A stretch of 9,004 bases of DNA from Candidatus Wukongarchaeum yapensis. GTDB taxonomy: Archaea > Asgardarchaeota > Wukongarchaeia > Wukongarchaeales > Wukongarchaeaceae. Below are positions 1 to 9,004 of this stretch, piece by piece. Each line of letters begins with the position of its first letter. Position 1 is the stretch's first letter. The stretch spans positions 1-9,004 of the forward strand of contig JAEOSI010000079.1 in the NCBI GenBank assembly GCA_016840425.1, in the 5' to 3' direction. The notes beneath the pieces were generated by a model that was given only the letters and a program-made list of their open reading frames with translations, ran no database searches and was not told where the DNA came from. Made by a program: the position numbers and the translations under genes.

Positions 1-1
1 C

Positions 2-259
2 AGGGGGAAGGTTGAACGCATGTTTTGTCAGGGTTGTCAGTCATGTGTAGAGGCATGTCCTTATGGCGTGGTATCATTTGGGGAGGAACATGTGATTAAT
101 GTTTCTCTGAGGGATACAGAAAACACTGAAAAATTAGCGAAACTTGACTATTTTAAAGTTATCGAGACACCAGAAGAAGCTGTTGACTTTATCATAGAAA
201 ACATGGGAAAAACTATTCCTAAAAGAGAAAACGAGGTTTTAAAAGTAAAATCGGAATGA
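2..259 (+). CDS. dmrX: 3' end (5'-truncated by window) of an archaeal 4Fe-4S flavoprotein, dihydromethanopterin reductase (acceptor) DmrX / AfpA family
   Basis: Frame is open from position 2 (RGKVERMF...), so ATG 20 is internal. Ferredoxin motif CQGCQSCVEACP is followed by a tail (INVSLRDTENTEKLAKLDYFKVIETPEE) resembling the 'R..D.EN...L......V...P' C-terminus I recall for MJ0208/DmrX-type proteins. Methanopterin-gene context supports this. The flavoprotein domain is outside the window. Confidence 0.65.
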   Translation, partial: RGKVERMFCQGCQSCVEACPYGVVSFGEEHVINVSLRDTENTEKLAKLDYFKVIETPEEAVDFIIENMGKTIPKRENEVLKVKSE

Positions 260-440
260 AAACAGTTTAAGCTCTTTTTTAATAGTTAGGTTTGATTTAT
301 TTTTTGGTGAGTGAAATATTTGTTTTCAAACGTTTAAAAACTTGTTTTAGGGACTTTTTCGATCCAAAATTAGGCTATAGAACCTTAAAGACAACTCATA
401 AACAGACTTTTTGTGGGGAACTGTTTTTACCGCCAAATTT

Positions 441-635
441 CTATTGTTTTTTCCTTCTAATTAATTCATAAAAAATTATAACTAATAGACAACCAAGAAT
501 GGTTTGAATCAACCCCTCAAAAGTGTCTACTAAAATAAAAACAATCATTGATCCCGTAATAAAAACAAGCCATATGAAAGCCGTGTCTCCTAGGCTTTCA
601 TTCAATCTATTTGATAGGCTTACTTCTTTCTCCAT
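441..635 (-). CDS. Small hypothetical membrane protein (64 aa, two predicted TM helices)
   Basis: Two hydrophobic stretches (AFIWLVFITGSMIVFILV; LIQTILGCLLVIIFYELI) and a basic C-terminus (RRKKQ). ATG at 635 preferred over TTG at 677 because GGAGGAGG (minus strand, 641-648) lies 5 nt upstream of it. Confidence 0.6.
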   Translation of the reverse strand: MEKEVSLSNRLNESLGDTAFIWLVFITGSMIVFILVDTFEGLIQTILGCLLVIIFYELIRRKKQ

Positions 636-716
636 TTTTTCCTCCTCCTGTGATTTCCTTCTTCTAAAAATATGCAACCATAATTTTATTTTTTTCTAAA
701 TAAATTTTTTTACTGC

Positions 717-791
717 GTGTTTTTTTGAAAGATAGTACTGAGAAGGTTTTAAGGAGTGTGTTTTTTTGAAAGATAGTACTGAGAAGGTTTT
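717..791 (+). repeat. Exact 34-bp direct repeat (717-750 and 758-791) separated by 7 bp
   Basis: GTGTTTTTTTGAAAGATAGTACTGAGAAGGTTTT occurs twice, with AAGGAGT between the copies (period 41 bp). The second copy contains the TTG start and first codons of the downstream CDS. Confidence 0.95.
725..769 (+). other. 14-codon upstream ORF (MKDSTEKVLRSVFF*) created by the duplication
   Basis: TTG at 725 reads to TGA at 767-769, overlapping the TTG start (766-768) of the main CDS. The ORF is visible in the sequence; its translation is unproven. Confidence 0.3.
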
Positions 792-2322
792 GGCTTTAAC
801 GGGGAAGGATGCTGAGAAGATAGTTAGAGAGTTTATTGAGGAGGCTAAAACTGAGGTTGAGTGCGATGTTAGGGTTCTCCCGATTAGTGTTGCTGCTTTT
901 ATGACTCCTAAACTGATTTTGGAGAATTTAGGTAAAGAGGATGTTAGTGGTTATGATGTTGTTTTTACGCCGGGTATGATGCGGGGAGATTTGGCGAAGG
1001 TGGGGGATTTTTTGGGTGTGCGGGTTTTAAAAGGTTCGCGTTATGCTTCTGATTTTCCACTGATTTTAGAGAATTTGGATCTTGATTATTCTACGGAAAG
1101 ACCTGCAGATCGGCTTCTTTTAGAGTTTAAGATTAATAAGGCTATGGAGATTATTGAATCTGCTAACGCTAAGCCTCTGGTTCTTTCGCGTAGTAATTTT
1201 ATGATTGGGAGGCTCAAGGTTGGTTTGGATTATCCTCCGAGAATAGTTGCAGAGGTGGTTGATGCTCCTAAACGCTCTAACGAATCTATTCTAGAGCTTG
1301 TTAAATATTATTTGGATAGCGGAGCGGAGATAATTGATGTGGGCGCTCTTGCAGGTCTCCCGAATCCTGAAAGGATCGGGGAGATAATTGGTTTGATTAA
1401 GGAGTTGTTTTCCGTGCCTGTAAGTGTTGATACTTTGGATGAGAGGGAGATTCTTGTGGGGGTTGAGGCGGGGGCAGAACTCATTCTTAGTATTGATTTT
1501 GGTAATTTGGAGGTTGTTGATAGTCTTTCTGAGGAAGTTGCTCTTACCGTGATTCCTACCAATGTTAAAAAGGGTTATATGCCTAAAAGTGCGAAGGAAA
1601 GGGTGGAAAACTCGTTAAAACTTAGAGATATTCTTCTTGAAAAGGGGTTTGAAAAGCTTTTGATAGATCCACTTCTTGAGTCAGCTGTTCATCCCGGACT
1701 AATGAATTCCCTTTTGTGTTATCATCTTTTTCGGGAAGCAGATTCTGTAACCCCAATGCTCATGGGAGTGGGGAATGTTGTAGAGCTTGCAGATGCAGAT
1801 AGCCCAGGAATGAACATGCTTTTAGCCGGTATTGCAGTAGAAGAAAATATTTCATGCATTCTTACAACGGAGGTTAGTGTAAAAAACACCTATTCTGTAA
1901 ACGAGTTAGTGAGGGGTAGGAACTTAGCTTTTGTATCAAACGTTAAAAAAGCCTACCCAAAAGATCAGGGTATAGATCTTTTAGTTGCAAAAAGCAAACG
2001 GAGAGGAGAACCTCTAGAGGATATAACAGGTATACCGCAGATAAAAGCTAAACCTGTTAAAGGATTTAAAATGGATCCTCTTGGCGTTTTTAGAATTTGG
2101 GTAAACCACACTGAAAAGGAGATCATGGTGGTACATTATAGTGCGGAAGGTGAGAAAACTAAAGCGTTCATAGGAAATTCTTCCCAAAATCTTTACAGGA
2201 AAATTCTAAATCAAGGTTTGGTTTCAGAAATGACCCATGCAGCTTACCTAGGAAGCGAATTATCAAAAGCTGAAGCCTGTCTGAAATTGGGGAAGACATA
2301 CATGCAAGACGAACCGTTTTGA
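766..2322 (+). CDS. mptH: Dihydropteroate synthase-related protein (MJ0107/MptH-like, methanopterin biosynthesis) with C-terminal DUF4346 domain
   Basis: N-terminal KVLALTGKDAE...VLPISVAAFMTP...GSRYASDFP; pterin-binding barrel motifs RIVAEVVDAP, GAEIIDVG, PVSVDTLD, LIDPLL, GVGNVVELADADSPGMN; C-terminal MDPLGVFRI...HAAYLGSELSKAEACLKLGKTYMQD. SD-like AAGGAG at 751-756. Confidence 0.88.
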   Translation: MKDSTEKVLALTGKDAEKIVREFIEEAKTEVECDVRVLPISVAAFMTPKLILENLGKEDVSGYDVVFTPGMMRGDLAKVGDFLGVRVLKGSRYASDFPLILENLDLDYSTERPADRLLLEFKINKAMEIIESANAKPLVLSRSNFMIGRLKVGLDYPPRIVAEVVDAPKRSNESILELVKYYLDSGAEIIDVGALAGLPNPERIGEIIGLIKELFSVPVSVDTLDEREILVGVEAGAELILSIDFGNLEVVDSLSEEVALTVIPTNVKKGYMPKSAKERVENSLKLRDILLEKGFEKLLIDPLLESAVHPGLMNSLLCYHLFREADSVTPMLMGVGNVVELADADSPGMNMLLAGIAVEENISCILTTEVSVKNTYSVNELVRGRNLAFVSNVKKAYPKDQGIDLLVAKSKRRGEPLEDITGIPQIKAKPVKGFKMDPLGVFRIWVNHTEKEIMVVHYSAEGEKTKAFIGNSSQNLYRKILNQGLVSEMTHAAYLGSELSKAEACLKLGKTYMQDEPF

Positions 2323-2370
2323 AAACTGTGGGGAAAAAAATAGGTTACGGAAAATATTGGTGAAAAAATT

Positions 2371-3784
2371 ATGGAGCATGAGGATTTAGCGGATTATGCG
2401 GTAGAACAAGGGTTAAGGGAGGGGGCGTCTTATGTTGAAGCGCGTCTTGAGGGGGTTATGGGGGATCAATTATTATTGAAAAATGGTAATTTGGAGGTTG
2501 GAGGGTTTTTTAGAAGGTATGGGTTAGGTGTGCGGGTTTTAGTGGACGGGGCTTTGGGGTTTTGTAGTCTGAACTATTTTTCAACGAGGAAAAAGGTCAG
2601 GGAAGTTGTTAGTAATGCGGTTAGGCTGGCGAAATATTCTTCGAAGCTTAGAAGGGAACCGATAAAGTTTTCGGATGAGGAGTGTGTGGATGCACGTTAT
2701 GAGGGTAAGTTTAGGGAAAATGTTTAGATATTGGTTTAGAAGAGAAAATTTCTCTTCTTGTTGATGTAGATAAAGCGGTGGATGTTGGTTTTTCTGATGT
2801 TTTTGTTCCTTTTAGATTAATGCATTTGCTTAGTGCTAATACTGAAAAGTATTTAGTTACTAGTGAGGTAGTAGGGTAAGTTCTTTCATACCGCGGATTT
2901 TTTTCACTTGTTTACTTACAGCTTTTAACAAGGTGAAGAAACAGATTGAACATGGGCCGATACATAAGGGGGCTTCTGGTGGATGGGAAATCGTTTTTGA
3001 TTGGGATTTGGGAAGAATTGTTGAGAAGGAGGTTGAGATTCTTTCAAAGATTCTGAGGGAAAGAAGAGAACCTCCGAAAGGTTTTATTGATTGTGTTATT
3101 GGTATCAATATTACAGGGATTGCATCTCATGAGAATTGCGGTCATCCGAGTGAGGCTGACCGTATTTTGGGGCGCGAGGGGGCGCAAGCGGGTGAGTCTT
3201 TTCTGAATAGAGAGATGTGGGGTCAGAGGATAGTGAGTGAGGAGGTTACGATTGTTGATGATCCTACTTTGGAGGGATCTTTTGGCTTTTATCTTTTTGA
3301 TGATGAGGGGGCGCCTACTCAAAAAACGATGATAATTGAAAGAGGGGTTTTAAAGGGGTTTATACATAATACAAGCACCGCAAAACGCTATAACGCAAAA
3401 ACTACCGGCAATGCAGGGATAATTTCCCAAAGGTCAAGTAATTTAGTGTTTGAGCCAGGAGATTACTCTTTTGAAGAACTTTTAAGCGAAACAGGGGACA
3501 ATCCTATGCTATATATAACTTCCTCTCGCTATACAAGATTTACAAACAGGGCTGAAGGAACGTTTTCTTCAATACCAAGGGATGGAGTGTTCCTAATTAA
3601 AAATGGGGAGTTATGGAAGCCTGTACGTGGTCTTCGGATTTCAGACAACATGTTAAACATTTTTAAAAACACGGTAGGGCTTAGCAAAGAAAGACAGCAA
3701 ATTAAGTGGTGGGAGGTAACAACCCCCACAGTTTCACCCTTCTTCTTGGTGCGAAATTGCTTGATGACTAGAGCTACCCAATAG
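2371..3784 (+). pseudogene. tldD: TldD/PmbA-family metalloprotease gene interrupted by two single-base deletions; apparently a TldD(N)-TldE(C) hybrid
   Basis: Frame 1 (2371 to ~2724) gives a TldD N-terminus (GASYVEAR...GLGVRVLVDGALGF). Frame 3 (~2724-2867) continues LDIGLEEKISLL...KYLVTSE. Frame 2 (2867-3784) continues GSRVSSFIPR...GASGGWE...HENCGHPSEADRILGRE. Adding one base at ~2715-2725 and one at ~2867 gives a 1416-nt, 471-aa ORF of normal TldD size. Confidence 0.88.
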
Positions 3785-3813
3785 CTAACGTGATTAAAAA
3801 CGGAAAAACAGGG

Positions 3814-3823
3814 TTTTTATATT
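3814..3823 (+). promoter_or_regulatory. Putative archaeal TATA box for the nitroreductase gene
   Basis: TTTTTATATT with an A-rich BRE-like stretch upstream (GGAAAAAC), about 50 nt before ATG 3873. Motif match only. Confidence 0.45.
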
Positions 3824-3872
3824 TATTTTAAAATAATATCGATATTTGATCTGTTTAGGGCGTGTTTTTCCT

Positions 3873-4394
3873 ATGGATCTTTTTGAAGCTATAAAGAGAA
3901 GAAGAAGCATCAGGGATTATACCAACGAAGATGTTTCAGAGGAGGATTTAGAAAAAATTTTAGAGGCAGCTATTTGGGCGCCTTCTGCGGGTAATCGTCA
4001 AGCATGGGATTTTGTTGTTGTACGGGATGATTCGGTTAAAAAAGCGCTTGTTAGGGCTGCTTTAGGGCAAAGATTTATTGCAGAAGCGTCCGTAGCGATC
4101 GTTGTTTGTGCAAATATGGAGCGTTCTGCATCACGTTACGGATCGCGTGGTAGCGGACTTTACTGCATCCAAGATACTGCTACTGCTATCCAAAACATGC
4201 TTCTTACAGTGACAGCTTTAGGGCTTGGAGCTTGTTGGATCGGAGCCTTTTATGAAGAAGAGGTAGCAAAAATATTAGAACTTCCAAGGGGTGTTAGACC
4301 GATAGCCATAATACCAATAGGCCATCCAGCGAGGGTGCCGCAGGCACCGCCACGGTTTAGATTGGCAGATGTTTTGCACTATGAGAAGTGGTAA
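3873..4394 (+). CDS. Nitroreductase-family FMN-dependent oxidoreductase (173 aa)
   Basis: MDLFEAIKRRRSIRDY, APSAGNRQAWDFVVV, QNMLLTVTALGLGACWIGAF, IIPIGHP are typical nitroreductase motifs. ATG 3873 preferred over TTG 3846 because homologs begin at M-D/E-x-x-E-A-I. Confidence 0.92.
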   Translation: MDLFEAIKRRRSIRDYTNEDVSEEDLEKILEAAIWAPSAGNRQAWDFVVVRDDSVKKALVRAALGQRFIAEASVAIVVCANMERSASRYGSRGSGLYCIQDTATAIQNMLLTVTALGLGACWIGAFYEEEVAKILELPRGVRPIAIIPIGHPARVPQAPPRFRLADVLHYEKW

Positions 4395-4438
4395 AAATCG
4401 TTTAAAAAGAGGAAAAAAATTTCGGGGTGCTTTGTTTT

Positions 4439-4621
4439 CTATTCTCTTTTTTTAGAAGGATTGCTTTTATGCTTTTTCGGCGCACATGAGGCACATAAAC
4501 CAGTTATAGCATCGTGACAACCTACGCAAGTAATTTTCCTACAAAGAATACAGCGCCTGGTAGAAGATGTCGTTTTTCTACATATTTCACAAACGAAATA
4601 ATTTTTATCCTGGTTTTGCAA
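4439..4621 (-). CDS. Small Cys-rich zinc-finger protein (60 aa)
   Basis: Pattern C-x2-C-x9-C-x2-C-x4-C-x2-C-x7-C-x2-C; co-oriented 41 bp downstream of UDG; TTG start. Confidence 0.7.
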   Translation of the reverse strand: MQNQDKNYFVCEICRKTTSSTRRCILCRKITCVGCHDAITGLCASCAPKKHKSNPSKKRE

Positions 4622-4662
4622 AGAAATCCCCTGGTTAAACCTTTTCTAAATGGATTAGGGTT

Positions 4663-5268
4663 TCATATTTTTGATTTTTTATAATGGTTAAAGTTATTAA
4701 GGGTTATTTTTGCATTTTTTGATAGTTTCTCTAAAGTTTTTATATCTGCGAATAAGGTATCTTTAAGTTTTGGATTGTAAAGTGCCGCGGCAGGGTGGTA
4801 CAATGGCAGATAGGTAATTTTTCCCATTTTTTTGAGTTTTCCATGTTCTTTTGATATTGATAGTTTTTTATCGATTAATGTTTCTGATGCTATTCTTCCA
4901 AGTGTACATATTATCGAGGGTTTTATTAGCGAGGTTTGCTTTCTTAGGTAGTGTAAACATGTAGTTATTTCTTCTTTTGTGGGTTCTCGGTTTTTTGGAG
5001 GGCGACATTTAACGATGTTTGTGATGTAGACATCAGTTCTTGAGAGACCGATAGAGGATAAAAGACTTGTAAGAAGCTTGCCTGCTTCGCCTACGAAGGG
5101 TAGACCTTGTCTGTCTTCTTGTACTCCTGGCGCTTCTCCGACTAATATTATGTCTGCGTTTAGTGATCCATCGCCGGGTACAGCATTTTTTCTCGTTAGT
5201 GATAGTTTACATTTTGTGCATTTGAGGATCTCTTGGGCAAGTTTTTTCAGTTCAGCAACTTTTTCCAT
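4663..5268 (-). CDS. udg: Family-4 (4Fe-4S) uracil-DNA glycosylase
   Basis: [42 protein letters not shown], second cluster Cys in TTCLHYL, and LYHPAAALY. Confidence 0.96.
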
Positions 5269-5358
5269 TTTTTAAAAACCTGCCTTTTTGGATATTTGCT
5301 GGTCTTAATAGACAATAATTTGGTATAGACGAACTTTTTATTATATTTTTATCCTTCG

Positions 5359-5372
5359 GGAGGTTGGAGGTT
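5359..5372 (+). promoter_or_regulatory. Tandem Shine-Dalgarno-like motif GGAGGTT-GGAGGTT
   Basis: Two adjacent copies; the second GGAGG (5366-5370) lies 6 nt before ATG 5377. Confidence 0.65.
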
Positions 5373-5376
5373 AAAA

Positions 5377-5664
5377 ATGGTTAGAGTTAACATAATTTTT
5401 AGAGGGGCTCTTTTAATGGTGTTCTTTTTTGATTCTTCTTCAGCTTCCCCTGATTTGTTGATAGAAAAATGGTTTGAGAAGGGATTTAGACGGGCTATAG
5501 AGATTTTCATAGCTTTTATTCCGTTGTTTTTCATGCTGGGGTTATGCCTTATTGTTTTAGGTGCTATACTCTTTCTTTCTGATATTTCGCAAAGGAGTGG
5601 AAGATCCTTTATTATTTGGGGGATATTTTTCGTAGTAGTGACATCTGCCCCTGCAATAACATAG
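5377..5664 (+). CDS. Small hypothetical membrane protein (95 aa; possible leader plus two TM helices)
   Basis: Strong SD. Hydrophobic N-terminal segment ending SSSA, an amphipathic stretch, then TM1 (IFIAFIPLFFMLGLCLIVLGAILFL), a short loop (SDISQRSGR) and TM2 (SFIIWGIFFVVVTSA). Confidence 0.7.
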   Translation: MVRVNIIFRGALLMVFFFDSSSASPDLLIEKWFEKGFRRAIEIFIAFIPLFFMLGLCLIVLGAILFLSDISQRSGRSFIIWGIFFVVVTSAPAIT

Positions 5665-5718
5665 GATAGGATCTAAAAAAGTTATAAAAGTTTTAAAAAT
5701 TGGGCGTTTTGCGACTTT

Positions 5719-7212
5719 TTAATATGATCTCGCAATGTACACTATTTTTGTAGCTTTTTCACCGCATACGATGCAGGTTCCTTCCGGTTTTTCATCAAAG
5801 TCTATTCGTGTACCCCTTACATCTGCTGTTAGTTCCTCTTTTATTTTTGCTGCACAGGGTTCACCTTCCATATCTGTTGAGCAGAAGGGAGCCCTTGCAA
5901 CTTCGTTATTTTCAATTATTGTCTTTAGGTCTTCGTAAGTTTTTGCATCTTTGAATACCGCGGCATGTTTTTCTTTTGCTCTTGTTTTTAGGTTTTCAAG
6001 GATTTTTTCTTCGAGTTCTTTCAGCTTGTTTAAAAGTTCTTCTTCTTTAATCTCCATTTTTTCATCAATGTCTCGTCTATAAAGGGTAAGTTTTCCGCTT
6101 TCAACTTCTCTTGGACCGATTTCAAGCCTAACAGGAACACCTTTCATTTCCCAGTAATAATATTTGTCCCCAGGAGATTTGTCGCTGTCATCGATTGATG
6201 CCCTTATTCCTTCTTTTTGGAGGAGTGAGAGGAGGTCTTTGCATTTCTCGTTTACTTTTTCTATCTTTCCTTTAACGGTTATAGGGATAATTGTTACTTG
6301 TATGGGGGCAAGTTTAAAGGGCAAAATTAGACCTTTTTTGTCTCCATGAGCTGTAATTAGCGCGGCGTAAATTCTTGATATAGCGGGGCCATAACAGGTT
6401 TGATAGACATATTTCATCTTTAGGTCTTTGTCTTGAAACATGATTTTGAAGGGTTTGGCAAAGTTTTGTCCTAGGAGGTGTGTTGAGGGTAGTTGAAGCA
6501 TTTTGCCGTTGGGCATAAGAAAGTCTGAGCCGTAAGTGTTTATTGCCCCGGCGAATTTGTCCCATTGAGGTCTTTGGAAAAAGATGAAGGGTATTCCAAA
6601 CTGTTCAGTCATTATTTCGTTTGTTGTTTCCATATCTTCTATGACCTGTTTTTCTGCTTCTTCTAGGGTGGAAAAAGCGTTATGGGTTTCAATCCAATAA
6701 AATTCCCTGCTCCTTATGAAAGGTTTAGTTGCTTTACCTTCATACCTCCATACTTGACAGCTCTGATATCTTTTGAAGGGTAACTGTTGATAACTCTTTA
6801 TCCAAAGGGAATAAAGTTGATAGAAAGCAGTCTCCGACGTAGGTCTTAAGGCTAATTTTTCCTCTAAAGGCTCGCCAGCACCATGCTCCGTAATCCAAAA
6901 CACTTCAGGTGTGAAGCCGTCTACGTGTTCTTTTTCTAACATAAAGTTTCTCTCAGGGATCGCTGCAGGAAACATGACAGGTAAATGACCTTTCTTTTCA
7001 AGGGTTTCTTCATACATCCTATACATTATCTTCATAGTAACTGTAGACCATGATTGAAAAACTACGAAACCTTTTACACCATACCTTAAATCAGCTAGCT
7101 CCGCCACTTCACAGATTTTATTATACCATTCAGTGAAATTTTTGTCTTTATCGATGCTGAAAGTTATTTTCTCTTTTGTTTGCAACTTTTCTTCTTGTAC
7201 TTCTTCAACCAT
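5719..7212 (-). CDS. proS: Proline--tRNA ligase, archaeal/eukaryotic type
   Basis: FTEWYNKI, LALRPTSET, motif 2 WRYEGKATKPFIRSREFYWIETH, STHLLGQNFAKPF, QTCYG-ISR, APIQVTIIP, KGVPVRLEIGPR, C-terminal Zn site (C...CIVCG) and terminal IARSY. GGTGG SD-like motif upstream. Confidence 0.98.
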   Translation of the reverse strand: MVEEVQEEKLQTKEKITFSIDKDKNFTEWYNKICEVAELADLRYGVKGFVVFQSWSTVTMKIMYRMYEETLEKKGHLPVMFPAAIPERNFMLEKEHVDGFTPEVFWITEHGAGEPLEEKLALRPTSETAFYQLYSLWIKSYQQLPFKRYQSCQVWRYEGKATKPFIRSREFYWIETHNAFSTLEEAEKQVIEDMETTNEIMTEQFGIPFIFFQRPQWDKFAGAINTYGSDFLMPNGKMLQLPSTHLLGQNFAKPFKIMFQDKDLKMKYVYQTCYGPAISRIYAALITAHGDKKGLILPFKLAPIQVTIIPITVKGKIEKVNEKCKDLLSLLQKEGIRASIDDSDKSPGDKYYYWEMKGVPVRLEIGPREVESGKLTLYRRDIDEKMEIKEEELLNKLKELEEKILENLKTRAKEKHAAVFKDAKTYEDLKTIIENNEVARAPFCSTDMEGEPCAAKIKEELTADVRGTRIDFDEKPEGTCIVCGEKATKIVYIARSY

Positions 7213-7337
7213 GTTTTAACGCCACCGCTTTCACAAGTTCCACTAAAAACCAAAAAAGCATAACCAAGTACAATTTTTGCTCAATAATTTAAGTAATTGA
7301 ACAGGGAAAAAACTTAGTTTTTTAGTTTAAATGTTTT

Positions 7338-7375
7338 GTTTTTATTTTTTAAAAAGTTAGGAAAAAAATAAAAAC
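7338..7375. terminator. Perfect 13-bp inverted repeat with T-tracts on both strands; candidate terminator of fae-hps
   Basis: GTTTTTATTTTTT (7338-7350) and AAAAAATAAAAAC (7363-7375) with a 12-nt loop. On the minus strand a T-tract starts about 35 nt after the fae-hps stop, as expected for archaeal oligo-U termination. Confidence 0.45.
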
Positions 7376-7409
7376 GTTAGTTTTTGGGGTATATTTCTTT
7401 ACTTTGGCT

Positions 7410-8588
7410 TCATTCTACGTGGATGCGGAACTGGTCTATGTCGTATCCTATGAGATCTATGAACCTTCTTGCGGATCTTTCGATGTCGCGAGATTGGGTT
7501 ATTGCGCGGCCGACTACTAGAATGTCTGCACCGTGTTTTAGGGCTTTTGGGGCGCTTTCTAGATCTATGCCTCCAGCAACACCTACTAGGATTTTGTTTT
7601 TGAATTCTGCTTTTATCTGTTTTAGTATGTCCCATCTTCTATCTTTTTGGGTTTCTGCGTCGATGCTTCTGTGGAGAATAACCACGTCTGGTAGTTCTTT
7701 TAAAGAGCTTAAGAGGGCTACGGGGTCTTCTAGGCCTATTGTGTCTATTATCGCGTAAATACCTATCCTATGGGCTTCGTAGATGAATTTTTCCAAGGTT
7801 TCTTTGTCAGCAGGTCCTGCAACGACTACACCATCTGCTGTTTCTTCGAAGGCTATGTCAACTTCCACTTGACCTGTATCGAGAGTTTTAAGGTCTGCGA
7901 CCATAAAAACGTCTTGTTTGATTTTTCTGATCTCGCTGACTGCTTTTACGCCTTCATTCTTCAAAAGTGGGGTTCCAACTTCCAAGATTATGCTGTCACT
8001 TTCAGGGATTTTTTTGACTATTTCAAGGGTTGCGTTTAGGGAGGGATTATCTAAAGCGATTTGGAGGTATGGGGGGCGCCATAATCTGTTATTAACTCTA
8101 AAACCTGTTATGGGATGTTTGGCACGATCTTTATCATACATGATTTTATCTAAGGGCGGATAGTTACTTAAAGCTCTTTTTACTGCAAGTTTTGTTGCTG
8201 CATAATTGTAGTGGAATATTTTACGGTAATCTGAAGCTTCTGGGTGGATGAAAACACTGCAAATGATTACCCACTCATCAAGTTTGTTTTTGGGGATTAT
8301 TTCGTCTTCTACAGCATCAGCAACTGCTTTTGCCACAGCATATTGGGCTGGGCCAAAGATTTTGTCAGCATCTTTCATCGTTTTTATTGTAACTTTCGGA
8401 ACGATCAAGGTGGGAGGTTTTGGGATAAGATTTGGGCGTATTACTGCGAGAAGGGGCGTATGACCTGCGGATAATTGGGTTAAACCATTTGCAAAAGCTA
8501 TGCCTACAGGACCATTTTTTTCCCCTATCAATAAATCGACATGGGCTATTTCTGGAGATTTCCCTAACAAAGCTTCACCAATAAACAA
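7410..8588 (-). CDS. fae-hps: Bifunctional formaldehyde-activating enzyme / 3-hexulose-6-phosphate synthase (Fae-Hps)
   Basis: Fae domain IGEALLG...AHVDLLIG...[19 protein letters not shown]...[14 protein letters not shown]...VFIHP...NYAATKLA; Hps domain [49 protein letters not shown] 8588 (M-F-I-G-E) preferred over TTG 8597 from homolog N-termini and GGTGG spacing. Confidence 0.96.
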
Positions 8589-8740
8589 GAATAACAACCA
8601 CCAAAATCTAAGGAAAAAATCTTTAGGTAGAAGATATGTTAATTTTCAAGATATACACGGATATTTTTTATTTTTAATGTTTGCATTATAAAATTTCTTT
8701 TTTTTATAAGCCGGAGGAGTATGTGAGTTTTTAAGAGGGA

Positions 8741-9004
8741 TTATGTTAGGGATTTTACTAAAAGATAGGAGACTATTTCGGCTTTTAAAGCCTCTTCAGA
8801 AAATATATTAACTTTTTTATCTCCAAGCAGCAAAGTTGGAGTCTCTGTGATCCCGTATTTTTCTGCAAGTTTTGTCGCTTTTTTCAAATTAATGACTTTT
8901 ATGCCGATTATTTCATTAAGCCCTAACTCTTCTAGGGTGTTTTTTACTTTCATTTTCGTTGAATAGGCATCTTCTTGGTCTATGAAAAGCAGTAAGACTG
9001 TTTT
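8741..9004 (-). CDS. Thioredoxin-fold protein or domain lacking CxxC (5'-truncated by window)
   Basis: Frame is open to the window edge: KTVLLLFIDQEDAYSTKMKVKNTLEEL...LAEKYGITETPTLLLGDKK. AEKYGI-x-x-x-PTLLL matches the thioredoxin cis-Pro region (E. coli TrxA APKYGIRGIPTLLLF). Confidence 0.65.
   Translation of the reverse strand, partial: KTVLLLFIDQEDAYSTKMKVKNTLEELGLNEIIGIKVINLKKATKLAEKYGITETPTLLLGDKKVNIFSEEALKAEIVSYLLVKSLT

Follow-up and report, generated by a model that had tools for sequence, protein, structure and literature searches.

The window analysed here, a 9,004-nt stretch of DNA from an Asgard archaeon, holds a single gene that begins as tldD and ends as tldE, and it raises the question of whether the two genes of a heterodimeric metalloprotease have become one working gene at this locus or whether the pair has been lost. 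Deletion by recombination between tandem paralogues gives rise to Lepore-type fusions, of which the delta-beta gene of haemoglobin Lepore is an example. Our analysis indicates that a fusion-deletion of this type very probably killed one of two Tld systems in this Asgard lineage, and that neutral decay followed.

In Escherichia coli, protease activity requires TldD and TldE together; the metal ligands of TldD are His262 and His267 of its HExxxH motif and Cys454 near the C terminus, and Cys454 and Lys456 tether a clamp that shapes the substrate cleft (PMC5810440). Three motifs, HExxxHxxE, RMxNTxxxPG and GxC, are specific to TldD, and the C416G mutant of Sulfolobus solfataricus Sso0660 has 12% of its activity left (PMC3497727).

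A TldD front and a TldE rear in one gene

Three-frame translation revealed that the interval from the ATG at 2371 to the TAG at 3782–3784 is a single Tld gene spread over three frames: frame 1 covers 2371–2724 (118 aa), frame 3 continues to about 2876 and frame 2 takes over from 2879. The initial annotation had described one Tld gene here, with a TldD catalytic region and two frameshifts, and both points hold. Alignment to relatives places the frameshifts as two 1-nt deletions (fs1 and fs2; Table 1), by which the window copy departs from the intact reading frame of a TldD. The multi-domain architecture of the PmbA/TldD family is recognizable in the hybrid: Pfam assigns PmbA_TldD_1st (PF01523) to the first piece (E = 2.7e-10) and PmbA_TldD_3rd (PF19289) to the last piece (E = 2.3e-53), and the central domain (PF19290), undetected in the broken window, gives a weak match in the intact allele P0132.

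The residues HENCGHPSE, encoded at 3128–3154, supply the HExxxHxxE motif of TldD, and HENCGHPSEADR of the hybrid begins at the same position, 3128. The FDDEG codons occupy 3296–3310, and past them the tail reads APTQKTMIIERGVLKGFIHNTSTAKRY...QIKWWEV...TRATQ. In a 47-sequence alignment, this tail, like that of TldEs, is gapped where TldDs have ...AAMCGKS..., so that the hybrid has no Cys-ligand motif and lacks the GxC(GK) third-ligand signature of TldD (Cys454 in E. coli). The same alignment shows that the RMxNTxxxPG motif is absent as well, the hybrid having a TldE-type RSSNLVFEPGD as against EPIVRMSNTYMKPGD in TldD. Of the three TldD-specific motifs, only HExxxHxxE is kept. Nor is the hybrid a full-length TldE without HExxxH: residues 315–471 alone are TldE-like, and the N part carries HExxxH.

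A protein search with the 301-aa last piece of the hybrid as the query gave two kinds of near-identical matches. One kind, represented by P0006 (482 aa), matches the window nearly letter for letter through FYLFDDEG and from there on has the sequence of a canonical archaeal TldD (...EPIVRMSNTYMKPGD...TEWNIDD...MCGKSNPE...). The other, represented by P0005 (466 aa), is without HExxxH and matches the window nearly letter for letter from FDDEG through the C terminus. We divided the 47-sequence alignment after DDEG and built separate trees of the N and C parts. The N part of the hybrid, with 97% amino acid identity to the TldD P0006 and 17% to TldE, falls within the TldD clade as the sister of P0006 (SH-aLRT 99), and the C part, with 94% identity to the TldE P0005 and 29% to TldD, falls within the TldE clade with P0005. 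The separate trees that had been proposed as a check of a chimaera thus place the two sides of DDEG in different paralogue families, and the TldE-type tail lacking CGK that had been described past DDEG is borne out by the identity to P0005 and by the gap at MCGK.

Table 1. Features of the hybrid locus in the window, and genotypes of the hybrid alleles.
Feature	Position or source	Strand	Remarks
tldD'-'tldE hybrid pseudogene, whole	2371..3784	+	1414 nt; intact allele P0132 is 1416 nt, 471 codons plus stop
TldD-only segment	2371..3293	+	Domains 1 and 2 and start of domain 3, including catalytic helix; 98.55% nt identity to L005 tldD
TldE-derived segment	3310..3784	+	Last 157 codons plus stop; 98% nt identity to L005 tldE
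Frameshift 1 (fs1)	2723..2725	+	T4 to T3, 1-nt deletion relative to intact relatives (alignment)
Frameshift 2 (fs2)	2867..2868	+	G3 to G2, 1-nt deletion relative to intact relatives (alignment)
HENCGH, TldD HExxxH metal-binding motif, kept	3128..3145	+	Motif role from PMC5810440, PMC3497727
Deletion junction, 16-nt direct repeat TTTTTGATGATGAGGG coding F-D-D-E-G	3294..3309	+	One copy each in L005 tldD and tldE, 1433 bp apart
Upstream synteny anchor, 518-aa DUF6513/pterin-binding protein gene	766..2322	+	Identical neighbour in tandem-bearing relatives
Downstream synteny anchor, nitroreductase-family gene	3846..4394	+	Behind tldE in L005, behind hybrid in window
Intact 471-aa hybrid	P0132 (ENA ERZ27275891)		
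fs1 alone	L015 (GCA_030587675.2), L028 (GCA_030587555.2)		
fs1 and fs2	Window, L004, L016, L029		
fs1 and a different 1-nt deletion	L017 (JGI 3300027888)		Deletion at 2908/9
fs1, fs2 and a 70-bp deletion	L027 (JGI 3300028823)		Between GAGGG.T.TTT repeats, taking out the junction itself

A 1433-bp deletion between 16-nt repeats

L005, a 62.5-kb NCBI contig that carries P0005, shares 98.0–98.6% nucleotide identity with the window across all 9 kb, in full synteny. Its gene order is pterin-binding/DUF6513, tldD (482 aa), tldE (466 aa), nitroreductase, UDG, a 95-aa ORF, ProRS and Fae-Hps, and tldE overlaps tldD by 1 nt. BLASTN aligned window 1–3309 with L005 4184–7493 and window 3294–9004 with L005 8911–14623, two alignments that overlap by 16 nt and between which exactly 1433 bp are absent from the window. 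No longer stretch of identical sequence is shared by tldD and tldE than this overlap, TTTTTGATGATGAGGG; the runner-up has 13 nt, and none of 300 shuffles reached a 16-nt match. Base 3293 is TldD-specific and base 3310 is TldE-specific. The deletion preserves the reading frame, since tldE is offset to frame +2 with respect to tldD and 1433 mod 3 is 2; and since the two repeat copies occupy homologous codons, the resulting hybrid is of normal length (471 aa). The locus therefore has a single in-frame breakpoint at a shared repeat, with halves that group with different paralogues. This agrees with the proposal in the initial annotation that recombination between tandem paralogues at the DDEG-coding homology deleted the 3′ end of tldD and the 5′ end of tldE. 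The repeat and the breakpoint are directly visible and fit a deletion guided by the repeat. As for the molecular pathway, the crossover homology is just 16 nt between genes whose proteins are only about 17–29% identical, from which we infer that replication slippage or microhomology-mediated repair is the likely mechanism, over unequal homologous crossing-over.

Synteny with relatives, the other check that had been called for, gave a consistent picture: L005 and the same-genus G001 (Candidatus Hodarchaeota archaeon DZ1B.339) have a tandem tldD–tldE between the same flanking genes, and L006 also bears the tandem. G001 has a second tandem pair besides, making four Tld genes, as against three in the window's genome (an intact pair on contig C142 and the hybrid), which argues that the tandem is ancestral and the hybrid derived. 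A PF19289 scan of the window's whole genome, a fragmented metagenome-assembled genome (MAG) of 277 contigs that is 92% complete, found the C142 pair and the hybrid locus and no further Tld gene; at that completeness, a relocated intact copy of the lost pair may, strictly, exist. The C142 pair is much more divergent and is conserved in G001 contig C14. It consists of a TldD of 484 aa (HESFGH, CGKGGQ; L001 1417–2871) and a TldE of 452 aa (L003 1414–2772), and presumably covers the lost function as a backup.

Some further features of the region were observed. The nitroreductase gene begins 61 nt past the hybrid stop; its ORF has 182 aa from a TTG in the window versus 173 aa as called in relatives, and the true start is probably an internal one near 3873. 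An exact, tandem-like 34-nt duplication (717–750 and 758–791, spacing 41) spans the start of the 518-aa DUF6513 gene; every hybrid-clade contig has it, as does L005, and no exact match to it was found in the same-genus G001. A few kilobases upstream in the relative's contig, at L005 327–875, lies a gene for a small GTPase of the Arf/Ras/Roc type, which fits an Asgard (Hodarchaeota) origin.

Decay of the hybrid and its bearing on function

At 90% identity, the 283-aa ORF falls into a cluster of 10 members drawn from NCBI, JGI and ENA. Genotyping covered nine alleles including the window, eight through their DNA and P0132 through its protein and gene coordinates, with two further cluster members left out. 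The alleles differ by SNPs, at 99.5–99.9% identity. The same junction recurs in at least nine assemblies from the three sources with distinct SNP haplotypes; these assemblies may partly share related samples and are thus not fully independent, although their SNPs and lesions still differ. A scan of JGI metagenomes gave one informative hybrid locus, already in the allele set. In a tree of the upstream/flanking and TldD-part DNA, with G001 as the root, the hybrid alleles form one clade that is sister to the tandem-bearing L005/L006 (support 89/90), which indicates a single origin of the deletion.

Within this clade, fs1 is common to all eight DNA-sequenced alleles and absent from the intact P0132, whose gene spans 1416 nt, versus 1414 nt in the window, and whose next gene lies 2 nt further off, so that its DNA is without both deletions. 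The second frameshift occurs in the window, L004, L016, L027 and L029, and not in L015, L017 or L028. All eight alleles with DNA, and hence eight of the nine genotyped, are broken, with at least three independent secondary lesions atop the shared fs1. We discarded programmed frameshifting and phase variation as accounts of these states, since the runs are just T4 and G3, the states differ among strains in a nested pattern and 70 bp are deleted in one strain. Pairs of SNPs at 3429, 3552, 3701 and 3723 (L004, L015, L016 and L017) occur in all four combinations (for example, A/A, G/G, A/G and G/A at 3429/3701), a pattern that implies recombination between strains, sites that mutated more than once or mixed consensus sequences in the metagenome assemblies.

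Polymorphism within the clade is 10 nonsynonymous to 0 synonymous in the hybrid gene, versus 21:15 in the flanking genes (Fisher two-sided p = 0.019; small counts), the count of 10 leaving out two alignment-edge artefacts of the L027 deletion. The 10:0 ratio is not significantly different from a neutral expectation of about 75% nonsynonymous (p = 0.056), and so shows a lack of constraint and nothing beyond that. Changes on the branch leading to the window, with G001 used for polarisation, number 7 nonsynonymous and 2 synonymous in the hybrid versus 13 and 21 in the flanks (p = 0.059, suggestive; small counts); this branch-wise ratio was set aside for the within-clade polymorphism, as the L005 branch also has a high ratio. 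Both comparisons point to lost constraint, on small numbers. The locus thus has the marks of a pseudogene: several independent lesions across alleles (fs1, fs2, the 2908/9 deletion and the 70-bp deletion) and, within these small counts, no purifying selection.

Judged from published mutagenesis and structure, the hybrid is most likely inactive as a protease. Because it keeps only the first TldD motif and its partner gene was removed when it formed, we infer that it had little or no activity from the outset, in keeping with its later decay. The AlphaFold2 model of the intact hybrid P0132 adopts a Tld fold (pLDDT 86.3, pTM 0.84), with scores modestly below those of an intact TldD control run with the same alignment (pLDDT 92.1, pTM 0.91), and the loop 261–280 is of low confidence in both models. 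Such a confident fold does not discriminate function, and a past functional period of the P0132 type is possible.

Could the hybrid, then, be functional, now or when intact, as a single-gene Tld that works as a homodimer or with a partner from the C142 pair, using another third ligand, the frameshifted copies being recent losses in some strains? We regard this as very unlikely. Homodimers are possible for TldD and for TldE, and some TldDs have Asp in place of the Cys (PMC5810440), but the hybrid has a gap and no substitute ligand at the Cys position, and the entire clamp is absent. An intact 471-aa allele does exist, and the crossover joins equivalent positions of two proteins that share a fold, for which the AlphaFold2 prediction is confident; the broken alleles and the 10 of 10 nonsynonymous polymorphisms speak against function nonetheless, as does the rarity of the arrangement. 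A motif scan of 116 full-length close matches found 47 with HExxxH and CGK (TldD), 68 with neither (TldE) and one, P0132, with HExxxH and a TldE tail. An exhaustive phmmer search of a library of 1.84 billion cluster representatives yielded no further TldD-N/TldE-C protein in its 150 top-ranked matches: outside the hybrid's own cluster, each of these aligns to about residues 4–440 (TldD type) or about 272–470 (TldE type). There is no established hybrid-type Tld family among those matches, and the locus reveals no new protease type or pathway. The idea of an unusual single-gene Tld type, raised in the initial annotation, thus keeps one intact hybrid in its favour and is opposed by the broken state of every DNA-sequenced allele and by these searches.

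Four representatives that seemed to combine HExxxH with the absence of the Cys motif were rejected as hybrids: in two the Cys motif takes a CVK form, a third is a TldE in which HEDDSH occurs incidentally elsewhere, and the fourth is P0190. This last protein (679 aa) is an end-to-end fusion of a C-terminal part of TldD with TldE, or a read-through at a contig start, and represents a different single-ORF Tld arrangement.

The more specific proposal, that the P0132-type hybrid is a working single-chain Tld, with a TldD catalytic helix on a TldE barrel and either homodimeric or paired with C142 subunits, seems to us very unlikely; if true, nature would have carried out the experiment of collapsing a heterodimeric protease into one gene.

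It is extremely improbable that the hybrid is an artefact of assembly or sequencing, with tldD and tldE collapsed into one at the DDEG-coding repeat and homopolymer errors read as frameshifts. The source MAG is indeed fragmented, and both frameshifts fall within short homopolymer runs. However, the 16-nt repeat is shorter than the assembly k-mers (k119 and k141 in the contig names) and so cannot mislead those assemblers, and short-read platforms are not prone to errors in T4 and G3 runs. The frameshift states are nested and phylogenetically coherent rather than scattered, and the junction is identical in the nine or more assemblies with different SNPs and secondary lesions, which excludes misassembly. 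Hardly credible, too, is a gene conversion or domain swap in which tldE sequence overwrote the 3′ end of tldD while a separate tldE survived and no gene was lost: an unassembled tldE is conceivable in a MAG of this completeness, but the nitroreductase that stands behind tldE in relatives is directly behind the hybrid here, the PF19289 scan found only the C142 pair and the hybrid locus, and the 1433-bp gap relative to L005 is clean.

A fusion-deletion compared with known systems

Under the preferred reading, a fusion-deletion with subsequent decay, the locus would have started with a tandem tldD–tldE, the second of two such pairs in the genus. In the ancestor of the window's strain group, one deletion between the two direct-repeat copies coding F-DDEG would have yielded an in-frame hybrid composed of TldD residues 1–314 and the last 157 residues of TldE. 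This product would have kept HExxxH and lost the TldD clamp, with its Cys ligand, and RMxNTxxxPG. The N-terminal two thirds of TldE would also have been lost, and therefore the heterodimer partner. The hybrid would then have been free to decay, giving rise to nested, branching lesions among strains, two 1-nt deletions among them in the window copy.

The locus provides a clean multi-allele record of the death of a gene pair in an Asgard archaeon, in which intact, once-broken, twice-broken and further-deleted forms co-exist in public metagenomes. It is also a worked example of deletion mechanisms in Asgard archaea, as 16 nt of identity sufficed to fuse anciently diverged tandem paralogues. For pseudogene annotation it is instructive that the locus is at present called as two or three unrelated ORFs, and the natural hybrid sequence can be used for probing the structural limits of the TldD/TldE fold.

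Compared with the TldD/TldE (PmbA) heterodimeric metalloprotease (E. coli, 5NJ5; S. solfataricus, Sso0660/Sso0661), the hybrid has the same three Pfam domains, the first and third of which are found in the window; its N part has the HExxxHxxE of TldD, its C part matches the usual tail of archaeal TldEs, and its ancestral locus is the usual adjacent tldD–tldE pair. In contrast to that system, it is one gene rather than two, is without the Cys ligand, clamp and RMxNTxxxPG of TldD and the N-terminal two thirds of TldE, and in the window is frameshifted twice. It differs from Lepore fusions in that its crossover homology is just 16 nt and its product later decayed; like them, it arose from tandem paralogues, with one in-frame crossover at homologous codons, a normal-length hybrid of the two genes and the intervening DNA gone.
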